Positions 30,687 through 54,536 of a stretch of DNA of 64,000 bases are shown here, piece after piece. The translations under genes and the position numbers were made by a program. The stretch lies in assembly GCF_041886205.1 (NCBI RefSeq), contig NZ_CP169029.1. One strand, 5' to 3'. The notes below the pieces were generated by a model. That model was not told the origin of the DNA, searched no databases, and was given only the letters and a program-made list of their open reading frames with translations. Source of the stretch: Escherichia coli. GTDB lineage: Bacteria; Pseudomonadota; Gammaproteobacteria; Enterobacterales; Enterobacteriaceae. Each line of letters begins with the position of its first letter. Positions within the stretch are counted from its first letter, which is position 1.

Positions 30687-31367
<681 letters not shown>

Positions 31368-31429
31368 TCACCTGGCCGGAGAGAGTGCCAGATTTGCCAG
31401 TCGAATTTTATACGACAGTATAAATGTCG

Positions 31430-32368
<939 letters not shown>

Positions 32369-32447
32369 CTATCCAACCGAAGTGTACTATACATTCGGTG
32401 GGCCAGTTTAGCACAAAGAGCCTCGAAACCCAAATTCCAGTCAATTC

Positions 32448-33599
32448 TTAATCAGCTTGCTTACGCAGGAATGCTGGGATATCCAGATAATCCGGCTCTT
32501 TCGCAGTTTGCGGCGCATTGTCATTCACGACTTTAGCAACCGGCTTCTGCTCCTGGGTCAGCGGAGCCATCCCGTGCTGCTGGTAGCGATCCATCACTGG
32601 CTGCTGAACCTGCTTATTGGTCACCAGAGTGATTTCAGGACGTTTGTCCATGCCGATACCTGTCGCAACAACGGTTACGCGCAGCTCGTCATTCATATCC
32701 GGGTCAAGAGAAGTACCGATAACCACAGTCGCGTTGTCGGAAGCAAATGCACGGATGGTGTTACCTACCGTTTCGAACTCATCCAGACGCAGGTCGAAGC
32801 CCGCCGTGATGTTAACCAGCACGCCGCGCGCGCCAGACAGGTCGATATCTTCCAGCAGCGGAGAAGAGATAGCCATTTCAGCAGCTTCTTCCGCACGGTC
32901 TTCACCGCTCGCCACGCCAGAACCCATCATTGCGTAGCCCATTTCAGACATTACGGTGCGTACGTCTGCAAAGTCCACGTTCATCAAACCCGGACGAGTA
33001 ATCAGTTCGGCGATACCTTGCACAGCGCCTTTGAGTACATCGTTCGCTGCGCCAAACGCATCCAGCAGGGAGATACCGCGGCCCAGAACTTTCAGCAGTT
33101 TGTCGTTCGGGATAGTGATCAGAGAGTCCACATGCTTGGACAGTTCAGTGATCCCCTGCTCCGCGAATGCCATACGCTTCTTGCCTTCAAAGTTGAAGGG
33201 CTTAGTGACGACAGCAACGGTCAGGATACCCAAATCTTTTGCCACTTCAGCGACGACTGGTGCTGCACCTGTACCGGTACCACCACCCATACCCGCAGCA
33301 ATAAAGACCATGTCTGCACCTTCCAGCGCCGCACGCAGTGCATCGCGATCCTCATCAGCCGCATTGCGGCCAACTTCTGGATTAGCGCCAGCTCCCAGTC
33401 CTTTGGTGATACCGCTACCGATTTGAATCGTCTGTCCAACCGCTGTTTTACGCAGCGCTTGTGCATCGGTATTTACCGCGAAGAATTCAACACCTTCAAT
33501 GCGCTCGCGCACCATGTGTTCAACAGCATTACCGCCGCCGCCGCCGACGCCGATGACTTTAATCACCGCGTCATTGGTAAGTTCCATTGGTTCAAACAT
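32448..33599 (-). CDS. ftsZ: Cell division GTPase FtsZ
   Basis: 383 aa with tubulin signature GGGTGTG and a conserved C-terminal peptide. Confidence 0.98.
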
Positions 33600-33659
33600 A
33601 GTTTCTCTCCGATTTGTGCCTGTCGCCTGAGACCGTAATCATTGTCGGCCTCATAAAAA

Positions 33660-34922
33660 TTAAAACTCTTTTCGCAGCCAACTATTGAGTCGCTTGATCC
33701 ACGAGCCAACTGATGCTGTAACACGTTTTTCTACTTCAGCTTCACCGTTAAGATGTGACTCTTTCCCGTAATGAAGCAATCCCACCGCCGTCGAATAATA
33801 CGGCTCCTGAGCATAATCCGTTAAACCGGTAATGTTCAGTGGCGCGCCGATACGCACCTGCGTATGAAACACGCGCTGAGCACAGGCTGCAAGACCTTCA
33901 ATCTGCGCTGCGCCACCGGTTAATACAATGCCTGCCGCCAGGTGATGTTTAACCCCTTGTTGGCGAAGCTTTTCCTGCAACTGCAATATCTCTTCGTTGA
34001 CCAGGTTGAGCAGCTCGGTATAGCGCGGCTCGATCACCTCTGCCAGGGTCTGACGTTGCAGACTCCGCGGCGGACGACCGCCTACGCTCGGCACTTCCAC
34101 GCTCTCATCTTTTCCAACGATGGAACCCAGCGCACAACCGTGGCGAACTTTAATCGCTTCGGCGTCGCTTGGCGGCGTGCCAAAGGCGTAAGCGATATCA
34201 CTGGTCACGACATTGCCAGCATAAGGAATTACCTTAGTGTGGCGCAATGCCCCACCGGTATAAACGGCGATATCCATTGTACCACCACCGATATCGACGA
34301 CGCAGACACCCAGTTCACGTTCATCTTCCGTCAATACCGAATAACTTGATGCCAGACCGGCAAATATCAGTTGGTCAACTTTCAGCCCACAACGTTCAAC
34401 CGCTTTGACGATGTTTTTCGCCATATCGTTGTGGCATGTGATCAGGTGCACTTTTGCCTGCATCCGCACGCCCGAAAGTCCTACCGGATTCTTGATCCCT
34501 TCCTGATAGTCAATCGCATACTCTTGCGGGATCACATGCAGCACACGATGCTCATCGCGCACACGCACCGATTTCGCGGTATGGACGACGTTTTCCACAT
34601 CTTCTTGCGTTACTTCTTCTTCAGAAATAGGCACCATACCAATTTCATTCTGGCAGCTGATGTGCTTACCAGAAAGCGCCAGATATACCGAAGAGATCTG
34701 ACAATCTGCCATCAATTCTGCCTGGTCAATGGCGCGTTGTACGCACTTGACCACGGATTCGAGGTCGTTCACCCCGCCTTTATCCATACCACGCGACGGG
34801 CAGCTGCCCACGCCAATGATATTGACCATACCGTCGGGCAGAACTTCCCCTACTAAAGCGGCAACCTTCGCGGTACCAATCTCCAGTCCTACTACCAGTT
34901 TTCTGTCCGTCGCCTTGATCAT
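33660..34922 (-). CDS. ftsA: Cell division protein FtsA (actin-like ATPase)
   Basis: 420-aa translation [27 protein letters not shown]…. Confidence 0.97.
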
Positions 34923-35749
34923 TGTTGTTCTGCCTGTGCCTGATTTTGTTGCTGAGTAGATTCCTCTGGCGGCAAGGGCGCCCAGCCTACTGCCGCTCCA
35001 GAGTCATAACGCAAATCAACGTAGCTAATCCGTTTGCCATCGGTTTGCGCCTGCTGCTGTAAAACCGGATAAAGTTCTACAAAGCGAGCCAAACGTTTCA
35101 TCGTATCGCCCCGGCCAAGATTGAGCTTAATATCGTTATTCAGCGTCAACTGCCAGGAACGCCGCGCGGTCATCGCCGCTTCCTTCAGAGTAAATCTGTC
35201 CTTTGCCAGCATCTGCCCCATTTCGCGATAGCCCTGCAACACTTCATTGGCGCTGCCTTCCGGGCCATACAGCATTGGAAGCACCTGCTTGCTGGTGCGA
35301 TCTGGCGGCACGCTAAAGGTGTTTCCTTCCGCGTCTACCATATGTTGATCATTCCACCGCGCAATCGGCACATATTCAACCAGATGAATCTTCAATTCAT
35401 CTGGCCACTGCTTTCTGACGCTCACCTGCTTAATCCACGGCAGGCGTTGTTCTATTTGCGTCTGGATGATGTTGACATCCTGGGTCATAAAGGTACCCGG
35501 CTCACCCAATGCCAGGATCGATTGCCGGATATCGTCATTACGCGTGTAATGGCGTTCACCGGTCAACACCAGCTTTGAGAGCGGCAGGCGTTGCGCATCT
35601 TCCATCCAGCCCAACACGACCCAGCCGCTCACCAACACTGTCGTTAAAACGGTCAGCAGGAAAAGGATCCCCGCCAGACGCGTTCCATTATTGCGGCGAG
35701 AAGAAACCTCTTCTTCGCTGTTTCGCGTGTTCAGAGCAGCCTGCGACAT
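34919..35749 (-). CDS. ftsQ: Cell division protein FtsQ
   Basis: 276-aa bitopic protein; 4-nt overlap with ftsA. Confidence 0.95.
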
Positions 35750-35750
35750 A

Positions 35751-38139
<2,389 letters not shown>

Positions 38140-38192
38140 TCTTTACGCCATTAACTTCTTAAATTCATACGATGCAAAAGGCATCGCTACAA

Positions 38193-39260
38193 TTACGCCC
38201 GGGCAGCCCGGCTCACTTCATTTGCCACTCGCTCGGTGGCATCCGGAATGGATGCAGCGCGGGCGCGTTCTGCCATGGTTAATAAGGTTTCTCGCGACCA
38301 CCCGGCCAGGGTGTTGGCGACAGCATCCACGCTAAGCTGTGGCTGCTCGATAATTTTGGCTGCGCCCGCTTTTTCCAGCGGTAGCGCATTCCAGTATTGC
38401 TGGCGGTCTTTATGTTGAAACGGTACAAACAACGCCGGTAGTCCCGCCGCGGCGATTTCACTCACCGTTAACGCACCAGAGCGGCAAACGACGACATCCG
38501 CCCACGCATACGCCGCCGCCATATCATCAATAAATTCCGTCACTTTATGCTGCGGTTGCCCCGCTTCGGCATACGCCTGTTCAACGGATTGTTGCGAACC
38601 TTTGCCGCTCTGATGCCAGATAGTGACTGAATCACCCAGTTTCGCAGCAACCTGCGGCATTGTCTGGTTAAGAATGCGTGCGCCCTGGGAACCACCCACT
38701 ACCAGCACACGAACCGGACCTTCACGTCCAGCCAAACGTTGCTGCGGCAACGGTAGCGCCAGCACATCGGTACGCACCGGGTTACCCACCACTTCCGCAT
38801 TAGGGAAAGCGCCTGGAAACGCCTGCATCACTTTGGTGGCAATCTTCGCCAGCCATTTATTGGTTAAGCCCGCAATACCGTTTTGTTCATGAAGTACAAC
38901 CGGAATGCCTAACGACCACGCGGCCAGACCACCAGGACCTGATACGTAGCCGCCCATACCGAGCACCACGTCAGGTTTGTACGCTTTCATAATCGCCCGC
39001 GCCTGACGCCAGGCATTGAAGATACGCAGCGGCGCAGCTATCAGTGCTTTTATACCTTTTCCACGCAGACCAGAGATACGAATGAAATCAATTTCGATGC
39101 CATGTTTTGGCACTAAGTCCGCTTCCATACGGTCGGCAGTCCCCAGCCAGCGAACTTGCCAACCCTGAGCCATTAGATGGTGCGCAACCGCCAGTCCCGG
39201 GAATACATGTCCACCGGTTCCGCCTGCCATCACCATTAATCGCTTTCCTTGACCACTCAT
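38193..39260 (-). CDS. murG: Lipid II synthase (UDP-GlcNAc:undecaprenyl-PP-MurNAc-pentapeptide GlcNAc transferase)
   Basis: 355-aa GT28 translation with MAGGTGGH motif. Confidence 0.96.
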
Positions 39261-40501
39261 CGTGAACCTCGTACAAACGCCTGCGCTTTCTCCAGACGCG
39301 TTTCATAATCAATACGCAACAGCATCATGATGGCTGTCGACATAATCAGTAAGCTCGAACCACCGTAACTGATCAGCGGCAATGTCAGACCTTTGGTCGG
39401 TAACATCCCCGCCGCCGCGCCTACGTTAACCAGCGCCTGGAAGCTAAACCAGATGCCAATGGAACAGGCGAGAAAACCGGAAAAACGGTGGTCAATTTCT
39501 AACGCTTTGCGGCCAATCGACATCGCACGAAAAGCGACGAAGAATACCATTAAAAGTGCCAGCACCACACCGACATACCCCAGTTCTTCGCCGATAATGG
39601 CGAAAATAAAGTCAGTGTGCGCTTCCGGCAGATACTCCAGTTTTTGTACCGAGTTACCTAAACCTTGCCCCCAAAGTTCGCCGCGACCAAACGCCATCAG
39701 CGATTGCGTTAACTGATAGCCGCTGCCAAAGGGATCTTCCCACGGGTTCCAGAATGCGGTAACACGGCGGATACGGTACGGTTCGGCGAGTATCAGCAAC
39801 ACAACCGCTGAAATGCCCATACCGATAATGGCAATGAACTGCCACAATTTCGCTCCCGCCAGGAACAACATCGCCAGCGTAGTCACAAACAACACCACCA
39901 CCGTACCAAGGTCTGGCTGTGCCAGCAGTAACACTGCCAACACCAGAATCACGCCCATCGGTTTCAGGAAGCCGCGCAGGTTATTACGTACTTCGTCGCC
40001 TTTACGCACCAGATAGTTGGCGATATAGCAAAACAGCGACAGTTTTGTCAGCTCCGCAGGCTGGATACGCAGCAAACCGAGATCGATCCAACGCGATGCC
40101 CCTTTAACCGAGCTACCCACTACCAGCACGATCATCAGCAGGATGATAGATCCGAGCAGCATCGTGGCACTGTAGCGTTGCCAGAACTCCATCGGCAGAC
40201 GCAGCGTAATGATCGCCAGAATAAACGCCAAAATCAGATAGACGCCATCACGCTTCGCGAAGAAGAACGGATCGTTGGTTAAGCGTTGCCCTATGGGCAT
40301 TGACGCCGAGGTCACCATGATAAAGCCAATCGCCGCGAGGCCGAAGGTCAGCCACAGTAAGGTGCGATCGTACATGATCAGGCTGTCGGTATCTTTTTCC
40401 CGCGAGCCCATCACCCAGCCCTTTAGCGCCGTGGAGATCCAGACCAGGATACTGAATCCTGGCAGGCGCGGCATTTTCAGGCGAGGGAGAGATAAACGCA
40501 T
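39257..40501 (-). CDS. ftsW: SEDS-family peptidoglycan polymerase FtsW
   Basis: 414-aa polytopic translation [24 protein letters not shown]…; ATG start chosen one codon inside the longest ORF. Confidence 0.94.
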
Positions 40502-41817
40502 CAACCTAACTCCTTCGCCAGACGGGCAAACTCATTGCCTCGTTGTTCAAAGTTCTTGAACTGATCAAGGCTGGCACAGGCCGGGGAGAGCAGAACCATA
40601 TCGCCCAGCTGAACACGCGGAGCCAGCAAGCGCATCGCCTGTTCCATAGTTTCGGTTTGTTCTGCCACTTCCGGACGTAGCGCCGCCAGCTGCGCGCCGT
40701 CACGACCGAAACAATACAGACGTACGTTATCGCCATTCAGGTAACGCGCCAGTGGGCTAAAGTCCGCCGATTTACCATCGCCGCCCAGCAACAAATGCAG
40801 CGTGCCGTCTACGTGCAGGCCATTCAGCGCCGCTTCCGTACTGCCGACGTTGGTCGCTTTTGAATCGTTAATCCAGCGCACACCGTTATGCTCCAGCACC
40901 ACTTCAAAGCGATGCGGCAGACCAGTGAATGTGGTTAACGCTTTCAGGCTGCTGGCGCGCGGTAACCCTGCGGCATCTGCCAGCGCCAGCGCCGCCAGCG
41001 CATTGGTGTAGTTATGCTGCCCGGAAATTTTCATTTCTTTCACGTTCAGCACTTTCTCGCCTTTCACCCGCAGCCAGGTTTCGCCCTGCTGATGATTCAG
41101 GTGATAGTCACCCATGTTGACGCCAAAGCTGACGCAGCGTTCATCCGCACCACGAATCGGCATTGTTAAGGCATCATCAGCATTAACCACGCAAACTTTT
41201 GCGTTTTCGTAAATGCGCAGTTTTGCTGCACGATACTGTTGTAAACCAAACGGATAGCGATCCATATGATCTTCAGTCACGTTCAGAATGGTCGCTGCAA
41301 CCGCCTGTAAGCTGGAGGTGGTTTCCAGCTGGAAGCTCGACAGTTCCAGCACGTACAGTTCACACTCATCATCCAGTAGCATCAACGCAGGCAAGCCAAT
41401 ATTGCCACCCACACCAACGTTAACCCCCGCCGCTTTCGCCATTTCACCCACTAGCGTGGTGACCGTGCTTTTGCCGTTAGAACCGGTAATCGCCACAATC
41501 GGTGCTTGTGCTTCGCGACAGAACAGCTCGATATCGCCAACGATTTCGATTCCGGCATCAGCGGCAGCGCTTAAGGATGGATGCGCCAGTGCAATACCGG
41601 GACTGGCGACAATTAGATCTGCCGCCATCAGCCATTCATCATTCAGACTGCCCGTGTGGCGTTCTACGGCTTCGGGTAATTTATCCAGGCCTGGCGGTGT
41701 CATACGCGTATCCATAACGCGCGGCGTCACACCGCGAGCGAGGAAAAAGTCCACGCAGGAAAGCCCGGTGAGGCCCAGGCCGATAATGACAACATTTTTA
41801 CCCTGGTAATCAGCCAT
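40501..41817 (-). CDS. murD: UDP-N-acetylmuramoylalanine--D-glutamate ligase
   Basis: 438-aa Mur ligase with GSNGKSTV. Confidence 0.96.
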
Positions 41818-41819
41818 GA

Positions 41820-42902
41820 TTAACGTACCTTCAGCGTTGCCAGACCAATCAGGACCAGCATCAGCGAAATAATCCAGAAACGCACAATGACGCGCGGTTC
41901 CGGCCAGCCTTTCAGTTCATAGTGGTGATGAATCGGTGCCATGCGGAAAATTCGTTGTCCGCGCAGTTTAAAGGAGCCGACCTGCAGGATGACAGAAAGC
42001 GTTTCTACCACGAACACTCCCCCCATAATCACCAGCAGGAATTCCTGACGTAGCAGTACGGCGATAATGCCTAACGCACCACCTAACGCCAGCGAACCTA
42101 CATCGCCCATAAAGACCTGCGCCGGATAGGTGTTAAACCACAGGAAGCCCAGTCCTGCCCCGACTATCGCGGTACAGACAATAACCAGTTCCCCGGCGTG
42201 TCGCAGATACGGTATGTGTAAATAGCTGGCAAAGTTCATGTTGCCGGTCGCCCACGCCACCAGCGCAAAACCACCGGCGACAAATACGGTCGGCATAATT
42301 GCCAGACCGTCAAGACCATCGGTCAGGTTTACCGCGTTGCCAGTACCCACAATGACGAAGTAAGCCAGCAGAATGTAGAACAGCCCCAGTTGCGGCATCA
42401 CATCTTTAAAGAATGGGACCACCAGCTGCGTTGCGGGCGTGTCTTTGCCGACAAGGTACAAAGCGAAAGCAACACCCAGCGCAATGACCGACATCCAGAA
42501 ATATTTCCAACGAGCGATCAACCCTTTGGTGTCTTTACGCACCACTTTGCGATAATCATCAACAAAGCCAATAACACCGTAACCTACCAGCACCACCAAC
42601 ACGCACCAGACGTACGGATTGGACGGGTAAGCCCACAGCAGTACGGAGATCACAATCGCCGTCAGGATCATAATCCCGCCCATGGTCGGCGTACCGCGCT
42701 TGCTGAAGTGTGATTCAGGACCGTCGTTACGCACCACCTGACCAAAGGAAAGTTTTTGCAAATGAGCAATCATACGCGGGCCCATCCACAATGAGATGAA
42801 CAGCGCGGTCAGCAGGCTGACGATGGCGCGAAACGTCAGATAGGAAAAGACGTTAAAGCCGGAATAATATTTGACCAAATGTTCGGCCAGCCAAACTAAC
42901 AT
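41820..42902 (-). CDS. mraY: Phospho-N-acetylmuramoyl-pentapeptide transferase
   Basis: 360-aa polytopic membrane protein [27 protein letters not shown]…. Confidence 0.97.
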
Positions 42903-44254
42903 GTCCCATTCTCCTGTAAAGCGCGTACTACCTCTTCCATGGCGGCACTACGTGAACCCTTAACTAAAATCGTAATTACCTGTTGCTCAGCAATCAGTGA
43001 TTTAAGACGCGCGATAAGCGCTGTTTTATCTGCAAAATGCTCGCCAACGCCGCTGGCGGTGCTGATAGCATGGCTTTGTTTACCCACGCTTAACACGCGG
43101 TCAATACCAGCAGCTTTTGCCGCCTCGCCCACCTGTACATGGCAGGCTTCGCTTTCAGCGCCCAATTCCGCCATATCGCCCACCACCAGCACGCGGTAGC
43201 CCGGCATTTCAGCCAGTACCTGAACAGCGGCGGTCATTGAACCGACATTGGCGTTGTAGGAGTCGTCGAGCAGCAACTGGTTTTCCGCCAGTTGGATGGG
43301 GAACAGACGGCCTGGAACGGCTTTCAGATTTGCCAGCCCCGCTTTGATAGCATCAAGCGTTGCGCCCACGGACATGGAGAGCGCAGCGGCTGCCAGCGCA
43401 TTCGCAATATTGTGACGCCCTGGAAGCGGTAGTAGAACATCCACACTACCGGTTGGGGTTTGCAGGGTAAATTCCGTACCGTGCGAGGTCACATGGATAT
43501 TGGTGGCGGTGAAATCGCTGTTGGCGGCATTGGGTGAGAAACGCCACACTTTGCGTGAGCCAATTACGCTCTGCCAGTTCAGCCAGTCGTTGTTGTCGGC
43601 GTTCATAATGGCGATACCGTTTTCCGGCAGGCCGCTAAAGATTTCACCTTTCGCTTTCGCGACCCCCGCAAGCGAGCCAAAACCTTCCAGATGTGCCGCT
43701 GCCAGGTTGTTGACCAGCGCCGCTTCCGGGCGAGTCAGACTCACAGTCCAGGCAATTTCGCCCTGATGGTTCGCGCCAAGTTCAATAACTGCGTAATCGT
43801 ATTCCGGCGTTAAGCGCAACAGCGTCATCGGTACACCGATGTCGTTGTTGAGATTGCCTGCCGTATAAAGCGTGTTGCCGCACTGGCTTAAAATCGCCGC
43901 CGTCATCTCTTTAACGGAGGTTTTGCCGGAGGACCCCGTCAGAGCAACCACGCGCGCCGGAACTTGCTGGCGAACCCATGCAGCCAGTTCACCAAACGCC
44001 AGACGCGTATCCTTGACGATTAACTGCGGCAGGTCGATGTCCAGCGGACGGCTAACCAGTAGTGCGCCTGCGCCGCCAGCTTTCGCCTGGTCGGCAAAAT
44101 CGTGGGCATCAAAACGTTCGCCTTTCAGGGCAACAAACAGGCAGCCCGGCATCAGTTTTCGCGTGTCAGTGGTTACAGCATCAAGGGTGATATCTGCACC
44201 TTGCAGTTCACCGTTGAGAATATCGGTAAGTTGGCTAAGGGTTACGCTAATCAT
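42896..44254 (-). CDS. murF: UDP-MurNAc-tripeptide--D-Ala-D-Ala ligase
   Basis: 452-aa Mur ligase with GSSGKTS. Confidence 0.96.
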
Positions 44255-45738
44255 GCAATCACCCCCAGCAGACGCGCCACCGTGACGCGATCGGAGTAGT
44301 CCAGACGCTGATTGCCAACAATCTGGTAATCTTCATGGCCTTTGCCCGCGACCAGTACCACATCATTCTCTTTGGCCTGCATAACGGCGCAAGTCACCGC
44401 TTCAGCACGGCCTTCCATCACTTTGGCATGTCCGGCATCTAACATTCCCGCCAGAATATCGTTGATGATGGCACGCGGTTCTTCGGTACGCGGGTTATCG
44501 TCCGTCACCACCGCCACGTCAGCAAACTCTTCGGCAATTGCGCCCATCAGTGGACGCTTACCTTTATCGCGATCGCCACCACAGCCAAAGACGCACCACA
44601 GCTTGCCCGCACAGTGCAGGCGCGCCGCCTGTAAGGCTTTTTCCAGTGCATCCGGCGTATGCGCGTAATCCACCACCACCGTCGGTTTGCCTGGCGCAGT
44701 GAACACTTCCATACGTCCGCAAACCGGTTGCAGACGCGCGGCGGTTTTTAACAGATCAGCCAGCGGGTAGCCAAGTGCCAGCAGTGTCGCCAGCGCGAGC
44801 AGCAGGTTGCTGACGTTAAAAGCGCCCATCAGATGGCTTTCAATTTCGCCATCGCCCCAACTTGAACTAAAGCGAATGGTCGCGCCGCTGTCGTGATAGT
44901 TCACTTCGGTCGCTTTCAACCAGCGTCCGTGACAGTTCGGATTGATATGATCTTCCATTGATACCGCAACCGCGTCCGGCAGTTTTGCCAACCAGCGGCG
45001 GCCCACTTCATCGTCGGCGTTAATAATCGCCTGACCGCAATGATGCTCAGAATAAAGCAGCCATTTCGCGGCTTCGTAGTGTTCCATATCACCATGATAA
45101 TCAAGGTGATCGCGGCTTAAGTTGGTAAAGACCGACGCCGCAAATTTCAATGCCGCCACACGGTGCTGTACCAGCCCGTGGGAGGAAACTTCCATTGCGC
45201 AAAAAGTCGCGCCCTGATCCACCAGCCCCGCCAGCTCATGCTGAACATCGACTGCCGAACCGGTGGTATTTTCTGTCGGGATCACTTTCCCCAGCAGACC
45301 GTTACCAACGGTGCCCATTACCGCGCTGGTTTCGCCAAGCAGTTGGCTCCACTGCGCCAGCAGCTGGGTCGTCGTGGTTTTGCCGTTGGTGCCCGTTACG
45401 CCTACGAGACGTAAATTGTCAGAGGGTTCATGGTAAAAGCGGCCCGCCAGTGCAGATAAACGCTCATTGAGCTGGCTGAGATAGATGACCGGTACGCCGT
45501 GCATTTCACGGATTTCACCGTCGGTCGCCTCATCTTTCGCCTCTGCAATAATGGCAGCCACACCTTGCGCTATCGCCTGCGGGATATATCGACGCCCGTC
45601 CGCCTGATGACCTACTACAGCTACAAAGAGATCGCCCGCCGCAGCCACACGGCTGTCGAGTGTCATCTCTCGCAGTGCTCGCGAAGGTGCGTCTGGCACC
45701 CACGGAGCAAGAAGGTCGCGCAAATTACGATCTGCCAC
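44251..45738 (-). CDS. murE: UDP-MurNAc-L-Ala-D-Glu--meso-DAP ligase
   Basis: 495-aa Mur ligase with GTNGKTTT. Confidence 0.96.
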
Positions 45739-47491
45739 CTGTCCCCTCGCCTTGATTAATCACAAATTCATTTTTATCGCCCGTTGTCAGCGCATCCGGC
45801 TCGATGTTCATGGTACGCAATACGCCGCCCATGATGGCACCAAAGACCGGCGCGGAAACGGCGCCGCCGTAGTATTTACCCGCCTGCGGATCGTTGATAA
45901 CAACAACCAGCGCGAAGCGCGGCTGACTCGCAGGCGCAACGCCTGCGGTATAAGCAATATATTTATTGATGTAGCGACCGTCCGGCCCGACCTTTTTCGC
46001 GGTACCGGTTTTAATGGCAATACGATAGCCTTTAATCGCCGCCTTCACGCCGCCGCCACCCGGTAGCGCCACGCTTTCCATCATATGCACCACAGTGCGG
46101 ACAATGGATTCCGGGAAGACACGTTCACCGGGAACCGGGGGGTCAACTTTGGTAATCGACAGCGGGCGATAAATGCCATAGCTGCCGATAGTTGCGTAGA
46201 CTCGCGCTAACTGTAACGGTGTTACCATTAGCCCGTAGCCGAAAGAGAAGGTGGCCCTCTCTATGTCAGACCACCGTTGTTTTTGAGGATATAAGCCACT
46301 GCGTTCTCCGACCAACCCCAAATTGGTCGCTTTTCCCAGTCCAAAACGTGAGTAAGTATCTACTAACGCTGAGGACGGCATCGCTAACGCCAGCTTGGAA
46401 ACACCGACGTTACTCGACTTCTGTAATACCCCGGTCAGGGTTAATTCGCTGTAGCGTGCCACGTCTTTGATTTCGTGGCCGTTAATTCGATAAGGAATGG
46501 TATTGAGTACCGAGTTTTCCCGCACCACGCCACGTTGCAACGCGGTCATCACCACCATCGGTTTAACCGTTGAACCCGGTTCAAACACGTCGGTGATGGT
46601 ACGGTTACGCATCGCCTCTTTCGGCGTGCCACTCAGATTGTTGGGGTTGTATGACGGGCTGTTAGCCATCGCCAACACTTCACCGGTGTTGACATCCACC
46701 AGCACGGCGCTACCAGATTCAGCCTTGTTAAAGGCCACCGCGTTGTTCAGTTCGCGATAAACCAGCGCCTGCAGGCGTTCATCAATACTCAGCGCCAGGT
46801 TGTGCGCAGCCTGGCTGTCAGTAGAAGAAATATCTTCAATTACGCGACCATAGCGGTCTTTACGCACAATGCGCTCACCCGGCTGCCCGGTAAGCCATTT
46901 ATCGAAACTCTTCTCGACGCCCTCAATCCCCTGGCTATCGACATTAGTAAAGCCGATGAGGTGAGCAGTCACTTCGCCGGATGGATAATAACGGCGAGAT
47001 TCTTCACGCAGATGAATCCCCGGCAGTTTCAGTTTTTTGATGTAGTCCGCCATGTCAGGGTTTACCTGACGCGCCAGATAAATAAAGCGCCCTTTCGGGT
47101 TGGCGTTAATGCGGGCAGAAAGCTGATCCAGCGGAATATTGAGCGCGTTAGCCAGCGCCTTCCAGCGGTCACCGACGCTGATACCGCCAGCGTCATGCAC
47201 TTCTTTCGGGTCAGCCCAAATCGCTTTTACCGGCACGCTCACCGCTAACGGGCGACCAGAACGGTCAGTAATCATGCCGCGGGAGGTGGAAACTTGCTGA
47301 ACGCGAAGAGAACGCATGTCGCCCTCTTTCACCAGCATATCCGGGGAGATAACTTGTAACCACGCTACGCGTCCGAGCAGAAAAGCCAGCGCCAGGAGAA
47401 TACAGCCGCATAACAACGCAAAACGCCAACTGATAAAGTTGGCATGTTCTTCCTGACGTTTTGGTTTCTGCGTTTTCGCCGCTGCTTTCAT
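45725..47491 (-). CDS. ftsI: Peptidoglycan D,D-transpeptidase FtsI (PBP3)
   Basis: 588 aa with transpeptidase motifs STVK, SSN and KTG. Confidence 0.97.
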
Positions 47492-47506
47492 GCGTCGCGT
47501 TTATCC

Positions 47507-47872
47507 TTATTTTTGCACTACGATATTTTCTTGTGACGGATCAACATGCTGCATTTGCAGCTTTTCCGTGGCGATCCTTTCCACCCGGCTATGGTCGCCG
47601 AGCGCATTCTCTTCAAGGATCAGGTTGCGCCATTCAATGTCTAAAGCATCTCGCTCCAGCACCAGTTGTTCGCGCTGAGCGGTCAGTAAACGGGTATGGT
47701 GCGCCGTGGTTACCACGGTCACCGCCGTCAAAATAATGCAAATGAACAGGCAGAGTGGCAGCTTCCCAAATCGCAAAAGATCGTCACCGATAACACCAGG
47801 CAATGCATGGCGCTCGTGGCTTCCCATCGATCCTTTAACTTTGCTTAGAGCTTCTGTCACTCTGCTGATCAT
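47507..47872 (-). CDS. ftsL: Cell division protein FtsL
   Basis: 121-aa bitopic protein with leucine-zipper-like periplasmic segment. Confidence 0.93.
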
Positions 47873-48810
47873 GCGTTCGTCCTCTCTGCAATACGCAGAA
47901 CTGAACTACGGGCACGAGGGTTCTCAGCCACCTCTTCTTCGCCCGGCATTAACTTGCCTAGTGCTCGCAGCTGACGGCCACCCAGTTTTTTGAGCTGCTC
48001 TTCAGTCATCGGTAACCCTGCCGGAACTTGTGGACCGCGGCTGTTTTCACGCATAAAGCGTTTCACAATGCGGTCTTCCAGTGAGTGGAAGCTGATGATC
48101 GAAAGCCGCCCACCCGGGGCCAGCACGTTGAGCGAGCTTTTTAGCGCCTGCTCTATCTCCTCCAGTTCACTGTTTACCCAAATGCGCACCGCCTGGAAGG
48201 TACGGGTCGCGGGATGTTTGAACTTGTCTTTCACCGGCGTTGCGGCAGCCACGACTTCCGCCAGTTCTTTGGTGCGGGTCATCGGCTGTTCGCGGTTACG
48301 CTCGACAATGGCGCGGGCAATGCGTTTGGCAAAACGCTCTTCACCATAGGTTTTCAATACCCAGGCGATATCCGCTTCTTCTGCGGTTTGTAGCCATTCA
48401 GCGGCTGACTGCCCACGGGTTGGGTCCATACGCATGTCCAGCGGACCATCGCGCATAAAGGAAAAGCCGCGTTCAGCATCATCAAGTTGCGGTGAAGAGA
48501 CGCCAAGATCGAGGAGAATGCCGTCGATCTTGCCGATAAGATCGCGCTCGGCAACGTATTCGCCCAGCGCGGAGAAAGGTCCGTGGATGATGGAGAAGCG
48601 CGGATCATCAATAGTCTTCGCAACGGCGATAGCCTGCGGGTCGCGATCGATCGCCAACAAACGCCCCTCTTCGCCAAGCTGCGAGAGGATCAGACGTGAG
48701 TGACCACCGCGACCAAAAGTCCCATCAATGTAGATGCCATCAGGACGGATATTGAGGCCATTAACGGCTTCATCCAGCAGCACCGTAGTATGTTTATAGT
48801 TTTCCATCAT
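47869..48810 (-). CDS. rsmH: 16S rRNA m4C1402 methyltransferase RsmH (MraW)
   Basis: 313-aa translation [19 protein letters not shown]…; start at internal ATG pair 48805-48810. Confidence 0.95.
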
Positions 48811-48811
48811 T

Positions 48812-49270
48812 TTATAGAGACAAGTCCTGCAGTCGCTCCGATAAGTCTCCGGTAGCCAACTGCTCTGCGTCGATATCTTCCTTGACCTGTTGATGCCAGG
48901 TTGTTTCATCCCACAGCTCAAACTTGTTGAACTGTCCAACCAGCATCACTTCTTTTGTCAGCCCGGCATGTTGCCGCAGTACTGGCGCGATTAACAATCG
49001 ACCTGCGCCATCCATCTGACATTCGCTGGCATGACCTAACAGTAGGCGCTGCACACGGCGCTCAACCGGGTTCATGCTCGACAGACGCGATAATTTTTGC
49101 TCGATAATTTCCCATTCAGGCAGGGGGTAAAGCAGCAGGCACGGGTGATGAATGTCAATGGTGCAAACCATTTGACCGGCAGCGTTCTCAAGCAGCTGTT
49201 CCCGATAACGGGTAGGCACTGATAAGCGCCCTTTGCTGTCGAGATTGACTAACGTTGCTCCCCGGAACAT
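48812..49270 (-). CDS. mraZ: Transcriptional regulator MraZ
   Basis: 152-aa translation [28 protein letters not shown]…; start at internal ATG 49268-49270. Confidence 0.95.
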
Positions 49271-49289
49271 GCCAGCCTCACCCCTTATT

Positions 49290-49314
49290 CCCACTTTGCC
49301 CCACAATTTCCCAC
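49290..49314 (-). promoter_or_regulatory. MraZ operator: three direct GTGGG repeats at 10-bp spacing in the mraZ 5' region
   Basis: Minus strand reads GTGGGaaattGTGGGgcaaaGTGGGaataa, 20-45 bp upstream of the mraZ ATG. Confidence 0.7.
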
Positions 49315-49871
49315 TGAAAGGAGTTTACGGAGCGGAGGAAAAGCTTGTCAAGCCAGTCACAAGGCATACCGAGGTAAAAAACCCGATGTTTACGGCTAAT
49401 ATCCGCGTTGTTTATTTTACGTCCAACGAGCGCAGCAAATTAACGTTATGAATAGCTGTAAGAAAAAATCCCTCATCGTCATCACCGTTTTAAAATGACT
49501 CACTATTTTCCACAGCAAATATAAAGTGTCAGTTTGCGACGCGAGCGGCATTTTAGGACATATCTTCCCCGGTTAACAGTCCCTGTTGCGTCTGTGTGGC
49601 GCTTGATGCCAGCGGGTTTGCGCAAAAGCAAAGAAAAGTGCTTGTTAAATCGGCAATTCATCTCTGCATGTAACAAAATAATGCAAAAACGCGCTGTCGA
49701 TATCACTTAATTATTGTGAATTTCAGCTGATGAGTTAAGTAACGGGCGGGTTTAAAAGGACTTATCAATAATAGTCAGGAATAGTCTTATTTACTTTAAG
49801 GATATTGATGTCCATTCCCGTACTCTACGCGCCAGAGGGAAATTAACCTGGCGCGTATTTTTGTTTGCGGC

Positions 49872-50876
49872 TTAGCTACGGCTGAGCACGCCGCGGCGAT
49901 AGAGATTACGTTTAATGCGCGTTAAACCAGGTTTTGGCTTACGCGGTTCGTCCAGGCTTGCCAGGACAATCTCCAGCACACGCTCTGCGACATCGCGGTG
50001 ACGTTGAGCCACTGCCAGTACCGGGCATTGCAGGAAATCCAGAAGTTCGTTATCACCAAAAGTAGCAATAGCCAGATCGGAAGGTAACTTACCGTCACGA
50101 CGCAGTGTGACATCCATTACCCCTTGCAACAAAGCAAACGAGGTGGTGAACAGCGCCTGCGGCATCGGATGCGTTTCCAGCCATTTTTCGAATAACTGGG
50201 CAGCCGCCTCCCGCTCATAGCTGTTGGCATAAAGGAAATGCACTTCGCGCGGATCATCTTTCCAGGCAGTACGGAAACCTTGTTCACGCAGGAAGCTGAC
50301 AGAAAGCTCCGGCAGCGCGCCAAGATAAAGCACCGTCTCGGCGGGAAACTTACGTAACTCTTCCGCCAGCATTTCGGCATCATCCTGATCGGCACCAACC
50401 ACGCTGGTAAAGTGTTCACGATCGAGGGCGCGGTCCAGCGCGACAATCGGGAACGGGTCGTTAGCCCAGCGTTGATAAAAAGGATGCTCAGGAGGCAACG
50501 ACGTCGAAACAATAATGGCATCAACCTGACGCTGTAAAAGGTGCTCAATGCACCGCATTTCGTTGTCTGGCTGATCTTCTGAGCAGGCAATCAGCAGTTG
50601 ATAACCCCGTTGCCGCGCCTGGCGTTCAAGATAGTTAGCGATGCGGGTATAGCTGGTGTTCTCCAGATCGGGGATCACAAGACCAATAGAACGTGTGCGT
50701 CCAGCACGAAGCCCAGCTGCCACGGCGTTCGGGTGGTAATTGTGCTCACGCACCACAGCCATGACTTTTTCAACGGTTTTGTCGCTCACACGGTATTGCT
50801 TCGCTTTGCCGTTAATAACATAGCTTGCAGTGGTCCGCGACACTCCCGCCAGCCGAGCGATTTCATCCAGTTTCAC
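49872..50876 (-). CDS. cra: Catabolite repressor/activator Cra (FruR), LacI family
   Basis: 334-aa translation [38 protein letters not shown]… with N-terminal HTH. Confidence 0.96.
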
Positions 50877-53591: not shown

Positions 53592-54536
53592 TTAGCGTTT
53601 GCAAATTGAGACTAATTGCTCTTCCATCCACTGATGACCTTTATCGCGCCCGGCAGCCTCATGCCAGGAGAGATAACAGGTTCTGCTATTTTGTTTTAAC
53701 GGCAGCGGTAATACCTGTAATTCTAAGGATTCAGCGAACTCTTCAGCCAGCCAACGCGGCGCAATAGCGACCAGATGCGTTTGCGACACCACGCTAAGTA
53801 CGCTCATCATTGCCATGCCCTGATACGCGATACTGGCTTGCTTATCTACCGTGTCATACCACGGTTGACTAAATGATGCGAAACGATCGAGCGAAACCGC
53901 CGCATGTTGTTCGTTATAAACATCATGTTTCAGTAACGGGCCTTTAATTGTTGGATGATTTTTGCTGGCTACCAGCACCATTTCATCTTTAAATAATGGC
54001 ACGCTGGTAAATTCAGGACGATGGAAGTCTTCATAACTAATCACAAACTCCGTTTCCTGATAACGCAGCTGATGTTCAGTGTTCTGATTTAATGAAGACT
54101 TGAACATGACATGTATATTTGGCGCAATCTGCTCAATGTGATTATAAATCTGCGAGGTCAGAATGCTGTCTAACGGGCTGCAAACACAAAGATGAAATAC
54201 ACGTTCACTGCTCGCGGGTTCAAAACCTGAACCAGGCAATTCATTTTGTACTAGTTGCAATGCCTGACGAACTGAACCAAAAAGTTGAAATGCGCGAGCA
54301 GTCGGTTGAATACCACGGCCATAACGAACAAAAAGCTCGTCATTAAACATCACCTTCAGGCGTGCAACAGCGTTACTGACCGCAGGTTGCGACATTCCCA
54401 GAACATGAGCGGCACGGGTAATGTTTTGCTCCTGCATCACGGCATCGAAAACGGTTAATAAGTTGAGATCGACCATGCGTAGCTGTGGCTTGCTTAACTC
54501 CGCCGTCTCTGGATGATCTGTTTGTACCTCTGGCAT
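53592..54536 (-). CDS. leuO: LysR-family global regulator LeuO
   Basis: 314-aa translation [44 protein letters not shown]…; start taken at the known N-terminus, though the ORF extends 28 codons further upstream. Confidence 0.9.

Follow-up and report, generated by a model that had tools for sequence, protein, structure and literature searches.

The dcw cluster of an Escherichia coli chromosome: canonical gene order, inherited gene overlaps and likely partial translational coupling

Genes, transcription signals and integrity of the cluster

The DNA analyzed here, referred to as the window, is a stretch of 64,000 nt from Escherichia coli (NCBI RefSeq assembly GCF_041886205.1, contig NZ_CP169029.1) that contains the dcw (mra) gene cluster. 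On the minus strand, in the order of transcription, lie mraZ, rsmH, ftsL, ftsI, murE, murF, mraY, murD, ftsW, murG, murC, ddlB, ftsQ, ftsA and ftsZ, followed by lpxC. We transferred the gene boundaries from the RefSeq annotation of E. coli strain 6EVA and then verified them by translation. The genes are listed below with product length in amino acids (aa), the score against the NCBIfam model of the expected name and, where relevant, the strength of the Shine-Dalgarno (SD) site.

48812-49270, minus strand: mraZ, 152 aa; TIGR00242, 225 bits against a cut-off of 98; transcriptional repressor of the cluster
47869-48810, minus strand: rsmH, 313 aa; TIGR00006, 452 bits; 16S rRNA m4C1402 methyltransferase; weak SD site
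47507-47872, minus strand: ftsL, 121 aa; NF008040, 213 bits; ATGA overlap with rsmH
45725-47491, minus strand: ftsI (PBP3), 588 aa; NF011685, 1316 bits
44251-45738, minus strand: murE, 495 aa, GTG start; NF001123, 897 bits
42896-44254, minus strand: murF, 452 aa; NF008041, 913 bits; ATGA overlap with murE
41820-42902, minus strand: mraY, 360 aa; TIGR00445, 539 bits
40501-41817, minus strand: murD, 438 aa; TIGR01087, 434 bits; weak SD site
39257-40501, minus strand: ftsW, 414 aa; NF008042, 852 bits; TGATG overlap with murD; start codon as in RefSeq and K-12
38193-39260, minus strand: murG, 355 aa; TIGR01133, 377 bits; ATGA overlap with ftsW
36664-38139, minus strand: murC, 491 aa; TIGR01082, 611 bits; very weak SD site
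35751-36671, minus strand: ddlB, 306 aa; NF002378, 437 bits
34919-35749, minus strand: ftsQ, 276 aa; NF008043, 558 bits
33660-34922, minus strand: ftsA, 420 aa; NF007009, 913 bits; ATGA overlap with ftsQ; weak SD site
32448-33599, minus strand: ftsZ, 383 aa; TIGR00065, 472 bits
31430-32347, minus strand: lpxC (envA), 305 aa; from the annotation; the classical 16th gene

All 15 open reading frames (ORFs) from mraZ to ftsZ are intact, each with a single stop codon and the expected length, and all start with ATG except for murE. Their products score far above the curated NCBIfam cut-offs of the equivalog or subfamily models of the expected names. The original prediction, which placed these 15 genes in the canonical order on a single strand at 32448-49270, agrees with the ORF map and with both the RefSeq and the K-12 annotation, and its coordinates run exactly from the ftsZ stop codon to the mraZ start codon. 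The functional unit is slightly larger and also includes the promoter Pmra with its GTGGG repeats, lpxC and a terminator (lpxC lies beyond the coordinates of that prediction); the classical E. coli cluster consists of 16 genes and ends with lpxC, which is followed by a terminator (PMC5089854). The transcription signals of this larger unit are the following.

49322-49351, minus strand: sigma-70 promoter-like site resembling Pmra, TTGACA-18 nt-TAAACT, upstream of mraZ; 10 of 12 positions match
49290-49314, minus strand: putative MraZ operator, three direct GTGGG repeats with a 10-nt period (GTGGGaaattGTGGGgcaaaGTGGG), in the interval between the promoter and mraZ
31352-31404, minus strand: intrinsic terminator after lpxC, a long G+C hairpin followed by U9; fold of -30 kcal/mol

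The Pmra-like site is the best promoter-like match in the region. An E. coli Pmra with a 38-nt leader has been described (PMC5089854, PMC7761207), as has an MraZ site that lies downstream of the -10 box and contains a repeated GTG motif (PMC7761207), and the predicted promoter and the GTGGG repeats of the window match both descriptions. At the other end, the hairpin after lpxC has a z-score of -6.06, and none of 200 shuffled sequences was equally stable, whereas the search for terminator-like sites within the cluster yielded 26, compared to 23.0 +/- 5.4 in shuffled sequence, that is, no excess. As judged from these predicted folds, the terminator after lpxC is the only strong one of the unit. 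Co-transcription of the E. coli genes as long polycistronic mRNAs has been reported (PMC5089854, PMC7761207).

The dcw/mra cluster of K-12 MG1655 (b0081-b0096, NC_000913.3 89634-107474) consists of the same 16 genes in the same order and on the same strand, with identical gene boundaries, identical junction spacings and an identical mraZ-ftsZ span of 16,823 bp, and the window also shares its promoter region, its GTGGG repeats and the terminator after lpxC. This is the comparison with a reference dcw cluster that had been proposed along with the original prediction. An ungapped comparison of 20,001 bp, from cra to secM, yielded 267 evenly spread mismatches (98.67% identity) without any indel, so that there is no insertion or deletion in or around the cluster; with no frameshift or internal stop codon either, the cluster is uninterrupted, as initially claimed. 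The differences from K-12 amount to 1.3% nucleotide divergence and 15 amino acid substitutions, none of them structural. The substitutions are spread over MraZ, MurE, MurF, MraY, MurD, MurG, MurC, DdlB and FtsQ, whereas FtsL, FtsI, FtsW, FtsA, FtsZ, RsmH and LpxC are identical to their K-12 counterparts. Thus, the locus is the canonical, intact E. coli dcw cluster, with no evidence against this identification, and the copy in the window is a structurally identical allele of the K-12 cluster.

In a megablast search with positions 32000-50000, the block was found in 5,424 of the 5,426 complete E. coli genomes, and in 5,422 of these 5,426, a single place contains no less than 80% of it. Identity reaches 99% or more in seven genomes, with strain 6EVA first at 100.0%, and is 95-99% in the other 5,417. 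Some E. coli carry an extra 777 bp at this locus, which we examined as a candidate interruption of the cluster and rejected: the additional DNA is an IS1A located in the spacer that separates cra from mraZ, not within the genes. In JX21CE8 (L005 17851-18548) and 23CRST027, this IS1A is located about 580 bp upstream of mraZ and leaves the cluster genes untouched; the corresponding spacer of the window (49271-49871) contains no IS1A.

The discovery value of the locus itself is small: the gene order and the compact junctions of the E. coli dcw cluster have been known for about three decades, and the conservation of the order, Pmra, repression by MraZ, internal RNAs and natural gene fusions at the same junctions are all documented as well. 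For quality control, the comparison is of use in showing that the window is an ordinary part of the E. coli core chromosome and that its FtsI is the wild-type 588-residue sequence; the cluster can be used as a clean reference block.

Junction spacings and their conservation

With negative values denoting overlaps, the 14 dcw junctions have the following spacings: mraZ/rsmH +1, rsmH/ftsL -4, ftsL/ftsI +15, ftsI/murE -14, murE/murF -4, murF/mraY -7, mraY/murD +2, murD/ftsW -1, ftsW/murG -4, murG/murC +53, murC/ddlB -8, ddlB/ftsQ +1, ftsQ/ftsA -4 and ftsA/ftsZ +60. Eight of these are overlaps (4, 14, 4, 7, 1, 4, 8 and 4 nt), and they are precisely the eight pairs for which overlaps of 1-14 nt had been proposed. 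Eight junctions fall within the range of -4 to +3, and 10 within -8 to +3, leaving out only those at -14, +15, +53 and +60. Overlaps are more frequent in the cluster (8/14) than among the other same-strand neighbor pairs in the window (4/25; Fisher p = 0.012), but the excess is not significant when only closely spaced pairs are considered (20 nt or less; 4/12 overlap; p = 0.22). In most prokaryotic groups, about 15% of co-directional pairs overlap (PMC6728339), and the -4, -1 and -8 classes are the enriched ones (PMC6728339, PMC12548453). Hence the cluster is unusually compact, and its overlaps, apart from the less common -14 and -7 classes, are those of an ordinary operon.

To place these junctions in a broader context, we used 80 loci obtained with a single MraY scan of species-representative genomes of Enterobacterales, Vibrionales, Pasteurellales, Alteromonadales and other gamma-proteobacteria. 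The 16 E. coli proteins were mapped onto the plus-strand ORFs of each locus, and the codon nearest to the E. coli-aligned N-terminus was taken as the start, which is a heuristic. All 80 loci share a colinear gene order. The 32 Enterobacterales loci, with a mean protein identity of 84%, have a median of 8 overlaps per cluster, and the exact E. coli spacing is retained at ftsI/murE (-14) in 30/30, at murE/murF (-4) in 30/30 and at murF/mraY (-7) in 31/31, followed by murD/ftsW (27/29), rsmH/ftsL (26/30), ftsW/murG (26/29), murC/ddlB (19/22) and ftsQ/ftsA (19/27). The same order is present in E. albertii, Citrobacter, Enterobacter, Klebsiella, Erwinia, Pantoea, Yersinia, Photorhabdus and others, with the spacers after ftsL, murG and ftsA varying freely in length, and Photorhabdus and Providencia are among the genera that have lost the ftsQ/ftsA overlap. 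Given that the spacings are kept across Enterobacterales, the overlap pattern is an inherited trait that is common to this order and was not gained by the present strain.

Outside Enterobacterales, the pattern is looser. The median number of overlaps is 5 for 11 scored junctions in Vibrionales and 6 for 13 in Alteromonadales together with the other gamma-proteobacteria, whereas Pasteurellales combine the same gene order with overlaps at only 2-3 of the 14 junctions. The most persistent overlap is murE/murF, which is kept in 12 of the 13 Vibrionales and in all 28 Alteromonadales and other gamma-proteobacteria, 22 of these at -4; the -7 spacing of murF/mraY is kept in all 5 Pasteurellales. A ddlB homologue between murC and ftsQ was not found in the Vibrionales loci and several others, mostly Shewanella (L037-L049, L053, L060, L062, L069, L071, L074, L075, L079 and L081), so that those clusters lack the murC/ddlB and ddlB/ftsQ junctions. 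Many of these Vibrionales and Shewanella loci overlap by 4 nt at ftsL/ftsI, unlike E. coli, where the two genes are separated by 15 nt.

One explanation of such a pattern is neutral: compaction of the genome and drift of stop and start codons in a long operon would have generated the overlaps as by-products that play no role in expression and are kept by the constraint of double coding. The general frequency of overlaps among co-directional genes, the non-significant excess over the closely spaced pairs in the window, and the scarcity of overlaps in Pasteurellales despite the same gene order are all compatible with this possibility. Nevertheless, we consider it unlikely. The Enterobacterales loci retain the exact spacing, including the unusual -14 and -7 classes, in as many as 31 of 31 cases at a mean protein identity of 84%, and the murE/murF overlap is retained across three orders. 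Moreover, the start regions are under constraint: in the segments from -30 to +10 around the 16 start codons (16 x 41 nt), there is a single difference from K-12 against about 8.8 expected (Poisson P ~0.0015 at the regional substitution rate), a roughly nine-fold depletion of substitutions at the junctions relative to the cluster average. These observations do not separate a constraint on expression from a constraint imposed by double coding.

Another possibility is that selection acts on adjacency itself, through co-translational assembly or "genomic channelling" of neighboring products (the Mur ligases, FtsQ/FtsA and FtsW/MurG), an idea cited in PMC7761207, with the overlaps being a side effect; synthesis of such products next to one another from a single mRNA would let their complexes form where they are made. 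The colinearity of all 80 loci is what would be expected in this case, and natural MurE-MurF, MurC-Ddl, MurG-MurC and MurD-FtsW fusions as well as interactions between Mur ligases have been reported (PMC10214165), the fusions involving the same junctions that overlap here. Channelling would account for adjacency and order but not for a fixed number of overlapping bases, and as an explanation of the overlaps it appears doubtful, although it is a real possibility; furthermore, it is compatible with the reading that we favor below and does not exclude it.

Possible translational coupling at the junctions

The original prediction took the overlaps to imply translational coupling, and the part of this claim that holds is that the spacing is suitable. 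Coupling is most efficient at spacings of -4 to +3 and declines with longer overlaps (PMC12548453). The conservation of the spacings in Enterobacterales and the near invariance of the start regions relative to K-12 also speak for coupling. Among the native E. coli -4 pairs tested by Huber et al. 2019, four of five (hyfHI, astDB, ydbH/ynbE as well as menDH) are tightly coupled (PMC6728339). The coupled pairs combine an ATGA overlap with an SD site within the upstream gene, and the same arrangement is found at rsmH/ftsL, murE/murF, ftsW/murG and ftsQ/ftsA. Coupling was measured in those pairs, to which the dcw junctions are likened by their geometry, a geometry that is shared by the uncoupled bioBF pair. 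In the papers that were searched for direct evidence of translational coupling within the dcw cluster, including ftsQ/ftsA, none was found.

The implication of the overlaps is weakened by the translation initiation signals of the downstream genes themselves. In 7 of the 8 overlap genes, the SD duplex energies are between -6.5 and -9.7 kcal/mol, compared to a background mean of -2.9 and a 10th percentile of -5.9; ftsA is the only overlap gene with a weak SD site (-4.2 kcal/mol). The SD sites of the overlap genes are conserved in Enterobacterales. In addition, for 11 of the 15 genes, the start region ranks beyond the 80th percentile of 60-nt windows of the cluster in its lack of structure, and murF alone (15th percentile) starts in a region of above-average structure. 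We considered coupling by unfolding of RNA as a general mechanism and rejected it because these 11 start regions are among the least structured windows. With an SD site of their own and an unstructured start region, these genes could be translated by independent initiation.

Published rates of protein synthesis from ribosome profiling bear on the same question. In the numbers quoted from Li et al. 2014, the values for K-12 are 575/984 for FtsA, 147/336 for FtsQ, 144/349 for FtsI and 117/293 for FtsW (PMC4428075). According to PMC10214165, the Mur ligases and MraY are made in roughly equal amounts, MurG at half and FtsW at 20-25% of that level, and MurE, MurF and MraY, specifically, at similar levels. 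In these numbers, which come from K-12 and thus from another strain, the downstream product is in excess at ftsI/murE, ftsW/murG and ftsQ/ftsA, the last junction being confounded by internal promoters; at murE/murF, murF/mraY and murD/ftsW, the same numbers indicate no downstream excess. Given the excess at the former three junctions, reinitiation by ribosomes arriving from the upstream gene would be insufficient on its own.

These data bear most directly on strict coupling by termination-reinitiation, whereby the downstream genes would be translated only by ribosomes from the upstream gene, which would fix the protein ratios. Four ATGA overlaps and one TGATG overlap are classic configurations for reinitiation (PMC12548453). 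Tight coupling in four of the five tested E. coli -4 pairs, the conservation of exact spacing in Enterobacterales and, in the published data, the similar levels of MurE, MurF and MraY together with a level of FtsW at 20-25% of that of MurD all point in the same direction. Yet, such coupling is quite improbable in view of the greater synthesis of the downstream product at three junctions, the strong and conserved SD sites that seven of the eight overlaps have in open RNA, and the -14 overlap, which is beyond the efficient range. It would also be at odds with the promoters known from K-12 within ddlB, ftsQ and ftsA, which yield transcripts without the upstream start.

Weak but conserved ribosome-binding sites are combined with tight spacing at rsmH (+1), murD (+2), ftsQ (+1) and ftsA (-4), and on these sequence features, the four genes are most likely the best candidates for dependence on a ribosome arriving from upstream. 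Three of the four follow spacers of 1-2 nt, not overlaps; from overlap alone, obligatory coupling in the dcw operon can be predicted only poorly. A separate observation concerns murC, which is preceded by a 53-nt spacer and has an SD energy of -1.5 kcal/mol, with a median of -2.9 and no value at or below -5.9 kcal/mol in Enterobacterales. MurC is nonetheless reported to reach the level of the other Mur ligases (PMC10214165), for which its SD pairing does not account.

Taken together, we consider it about 93% probable that the window carries the canonical E. coli dcw cluster, colinear with that of K-12, in which the overlaps are inherited and selectively maintained and partial translational coupling is likely. 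Transcription would start at Pmra, upstream of mraZ, under repression by MraZ via the GTGGG repeats, and would read through the entire gene set up to the one strong terminator, which follows lpxC, with internal promoters like those of K-12 presumably adding further transcripts. The stop/start overlaps and the 1-2 nt spacers represent inherited, selectively maintained compaction of the operon, in which ribosomes that finish one gene might be retained at the start of the next one, and de novo initiation at the genes' own SD sites in unstructured regions would set the final protein ratios. Thus, we infer partial coupling superimposed on independent initiation, for which murE-murF-mraY and the weak-SD genes rsmH, murD, ftsQ and ftsA would be the clearest candidates.

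Several observations weigh against this combination of maintained overlaps and partial coupling. The bioBF pair, although it is an E. coli -4 pair among those tested, is uncoupled (PMC6728339). The downstream excess in the K-12 data speaks against coupling as the main function, with FtsA exceeding FtsQ 3-4 fold, the Mur ligases exceeding FtsI about 4 fold and MurG exceeding FtsW about 2 fold despite the overlaps of these pairs. Pasteurellales keep the gene order with only 2-3 overlaps, and overlap is therefore unnecessary for a working cluster. Finally, a few of the odd spacings in other species, such as -34 and -41, are probably artefacts of the start heuristic.

The non-canonical overlaps at ftsI/murE (-14, GTG start) and murF/mraY (-7), which are frozen in all the sampled Enterobacterales, could go beyond inherited geometry and form a dedicated device for setting protein ratios, in which, for instance, the terminating ribosome would occlude or unmask the downstream start and so fix the step up from low-copy FtsI to high-copy MurE. 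We regard a device of this kind as very unlikely.

RNAs, an antisense reading frame and minor observations

Two regions of the cluster correspond to non-coding RNAs (ncRNAs) annotated in K-12.

46246-46419, minus strand: FtsO region, an ORF-internal small RNA (sRNA) within ftsI; ncRNA ftsO in NC_000913.3
33405-33956, plus strand: StfZ region, a putative antisense RNA opposite the ftsA-ftsZ junction; ncRNA stfZ in NC_000913.3

The FtsO region is identical to that of K-12 at all 174 positions, and an Rfam search of this region matched no family, whereas the StfZ region contains 7 differences from K-12 in 552 nt. The 3' end of ftsA and the ftsZ leader (33591-33680, minus strand) are matched with 104.9 bits (gathering score 69) by RF02797, an Rfam family named "PssrA, plasmid-encoded Shigella sRNA A"; the family name looks misleading for this locus. 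We rejected the possibility that this match represents a plasmid-derived insertion: it lies in the native ftsA-ftsZ spacer, with two differences from K-12 and no indel, and in the plasmid collection, DNA of this spacer occurs only in chromosome-sized "plasmid" records (0.4-4.9 Mb).

On the plus strand, a codon-aligned ORF of 393 aa (32457-33638) runs antisense to nearly all of ftsZ. It was rejected as a gene: in none of the other species checked, E. albertii among them, is the ORF uninterrupted. The ftsZ gene contains no TTA, CTA or TCA codons, compared to 2.6% in the other 15 genes (P ~3.5e-5 at that rate), and the antisense frame is open for this reason, as a by-product of codon bias.

Two minor points concern individual proteins. 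The Y41H substitution in MraZ relative to K-12 (window positions 49148-49150) results from the only nucleotide change in mraZ. The naming of FtsI is inconsistent: RefSeq/PGAP and NCBIfam NF011685 call it "peptidoglycan glycosyltransferase", whereas the K-12 record has "DD-transpeptidase" and gives the glycosyltransferase name to FtsW instead.

With respect to strain 6EVA, the window differs at position 48847 (mraZ codon 142), so that it comes from a strain closely related to 6EVA but distinct from it. Its last ~90 bases (63914-64000) diverge from 6EVA within a pentapeptide-repeat pseudogene, for which the annotation gives two fragments; this suggests a small indel or a difference in repeat number. 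The lowest G+C content of the window (0.442, at 54001-56000) corresponds to leuO together with the spacer that separates it from the leu leader (53592-55195).

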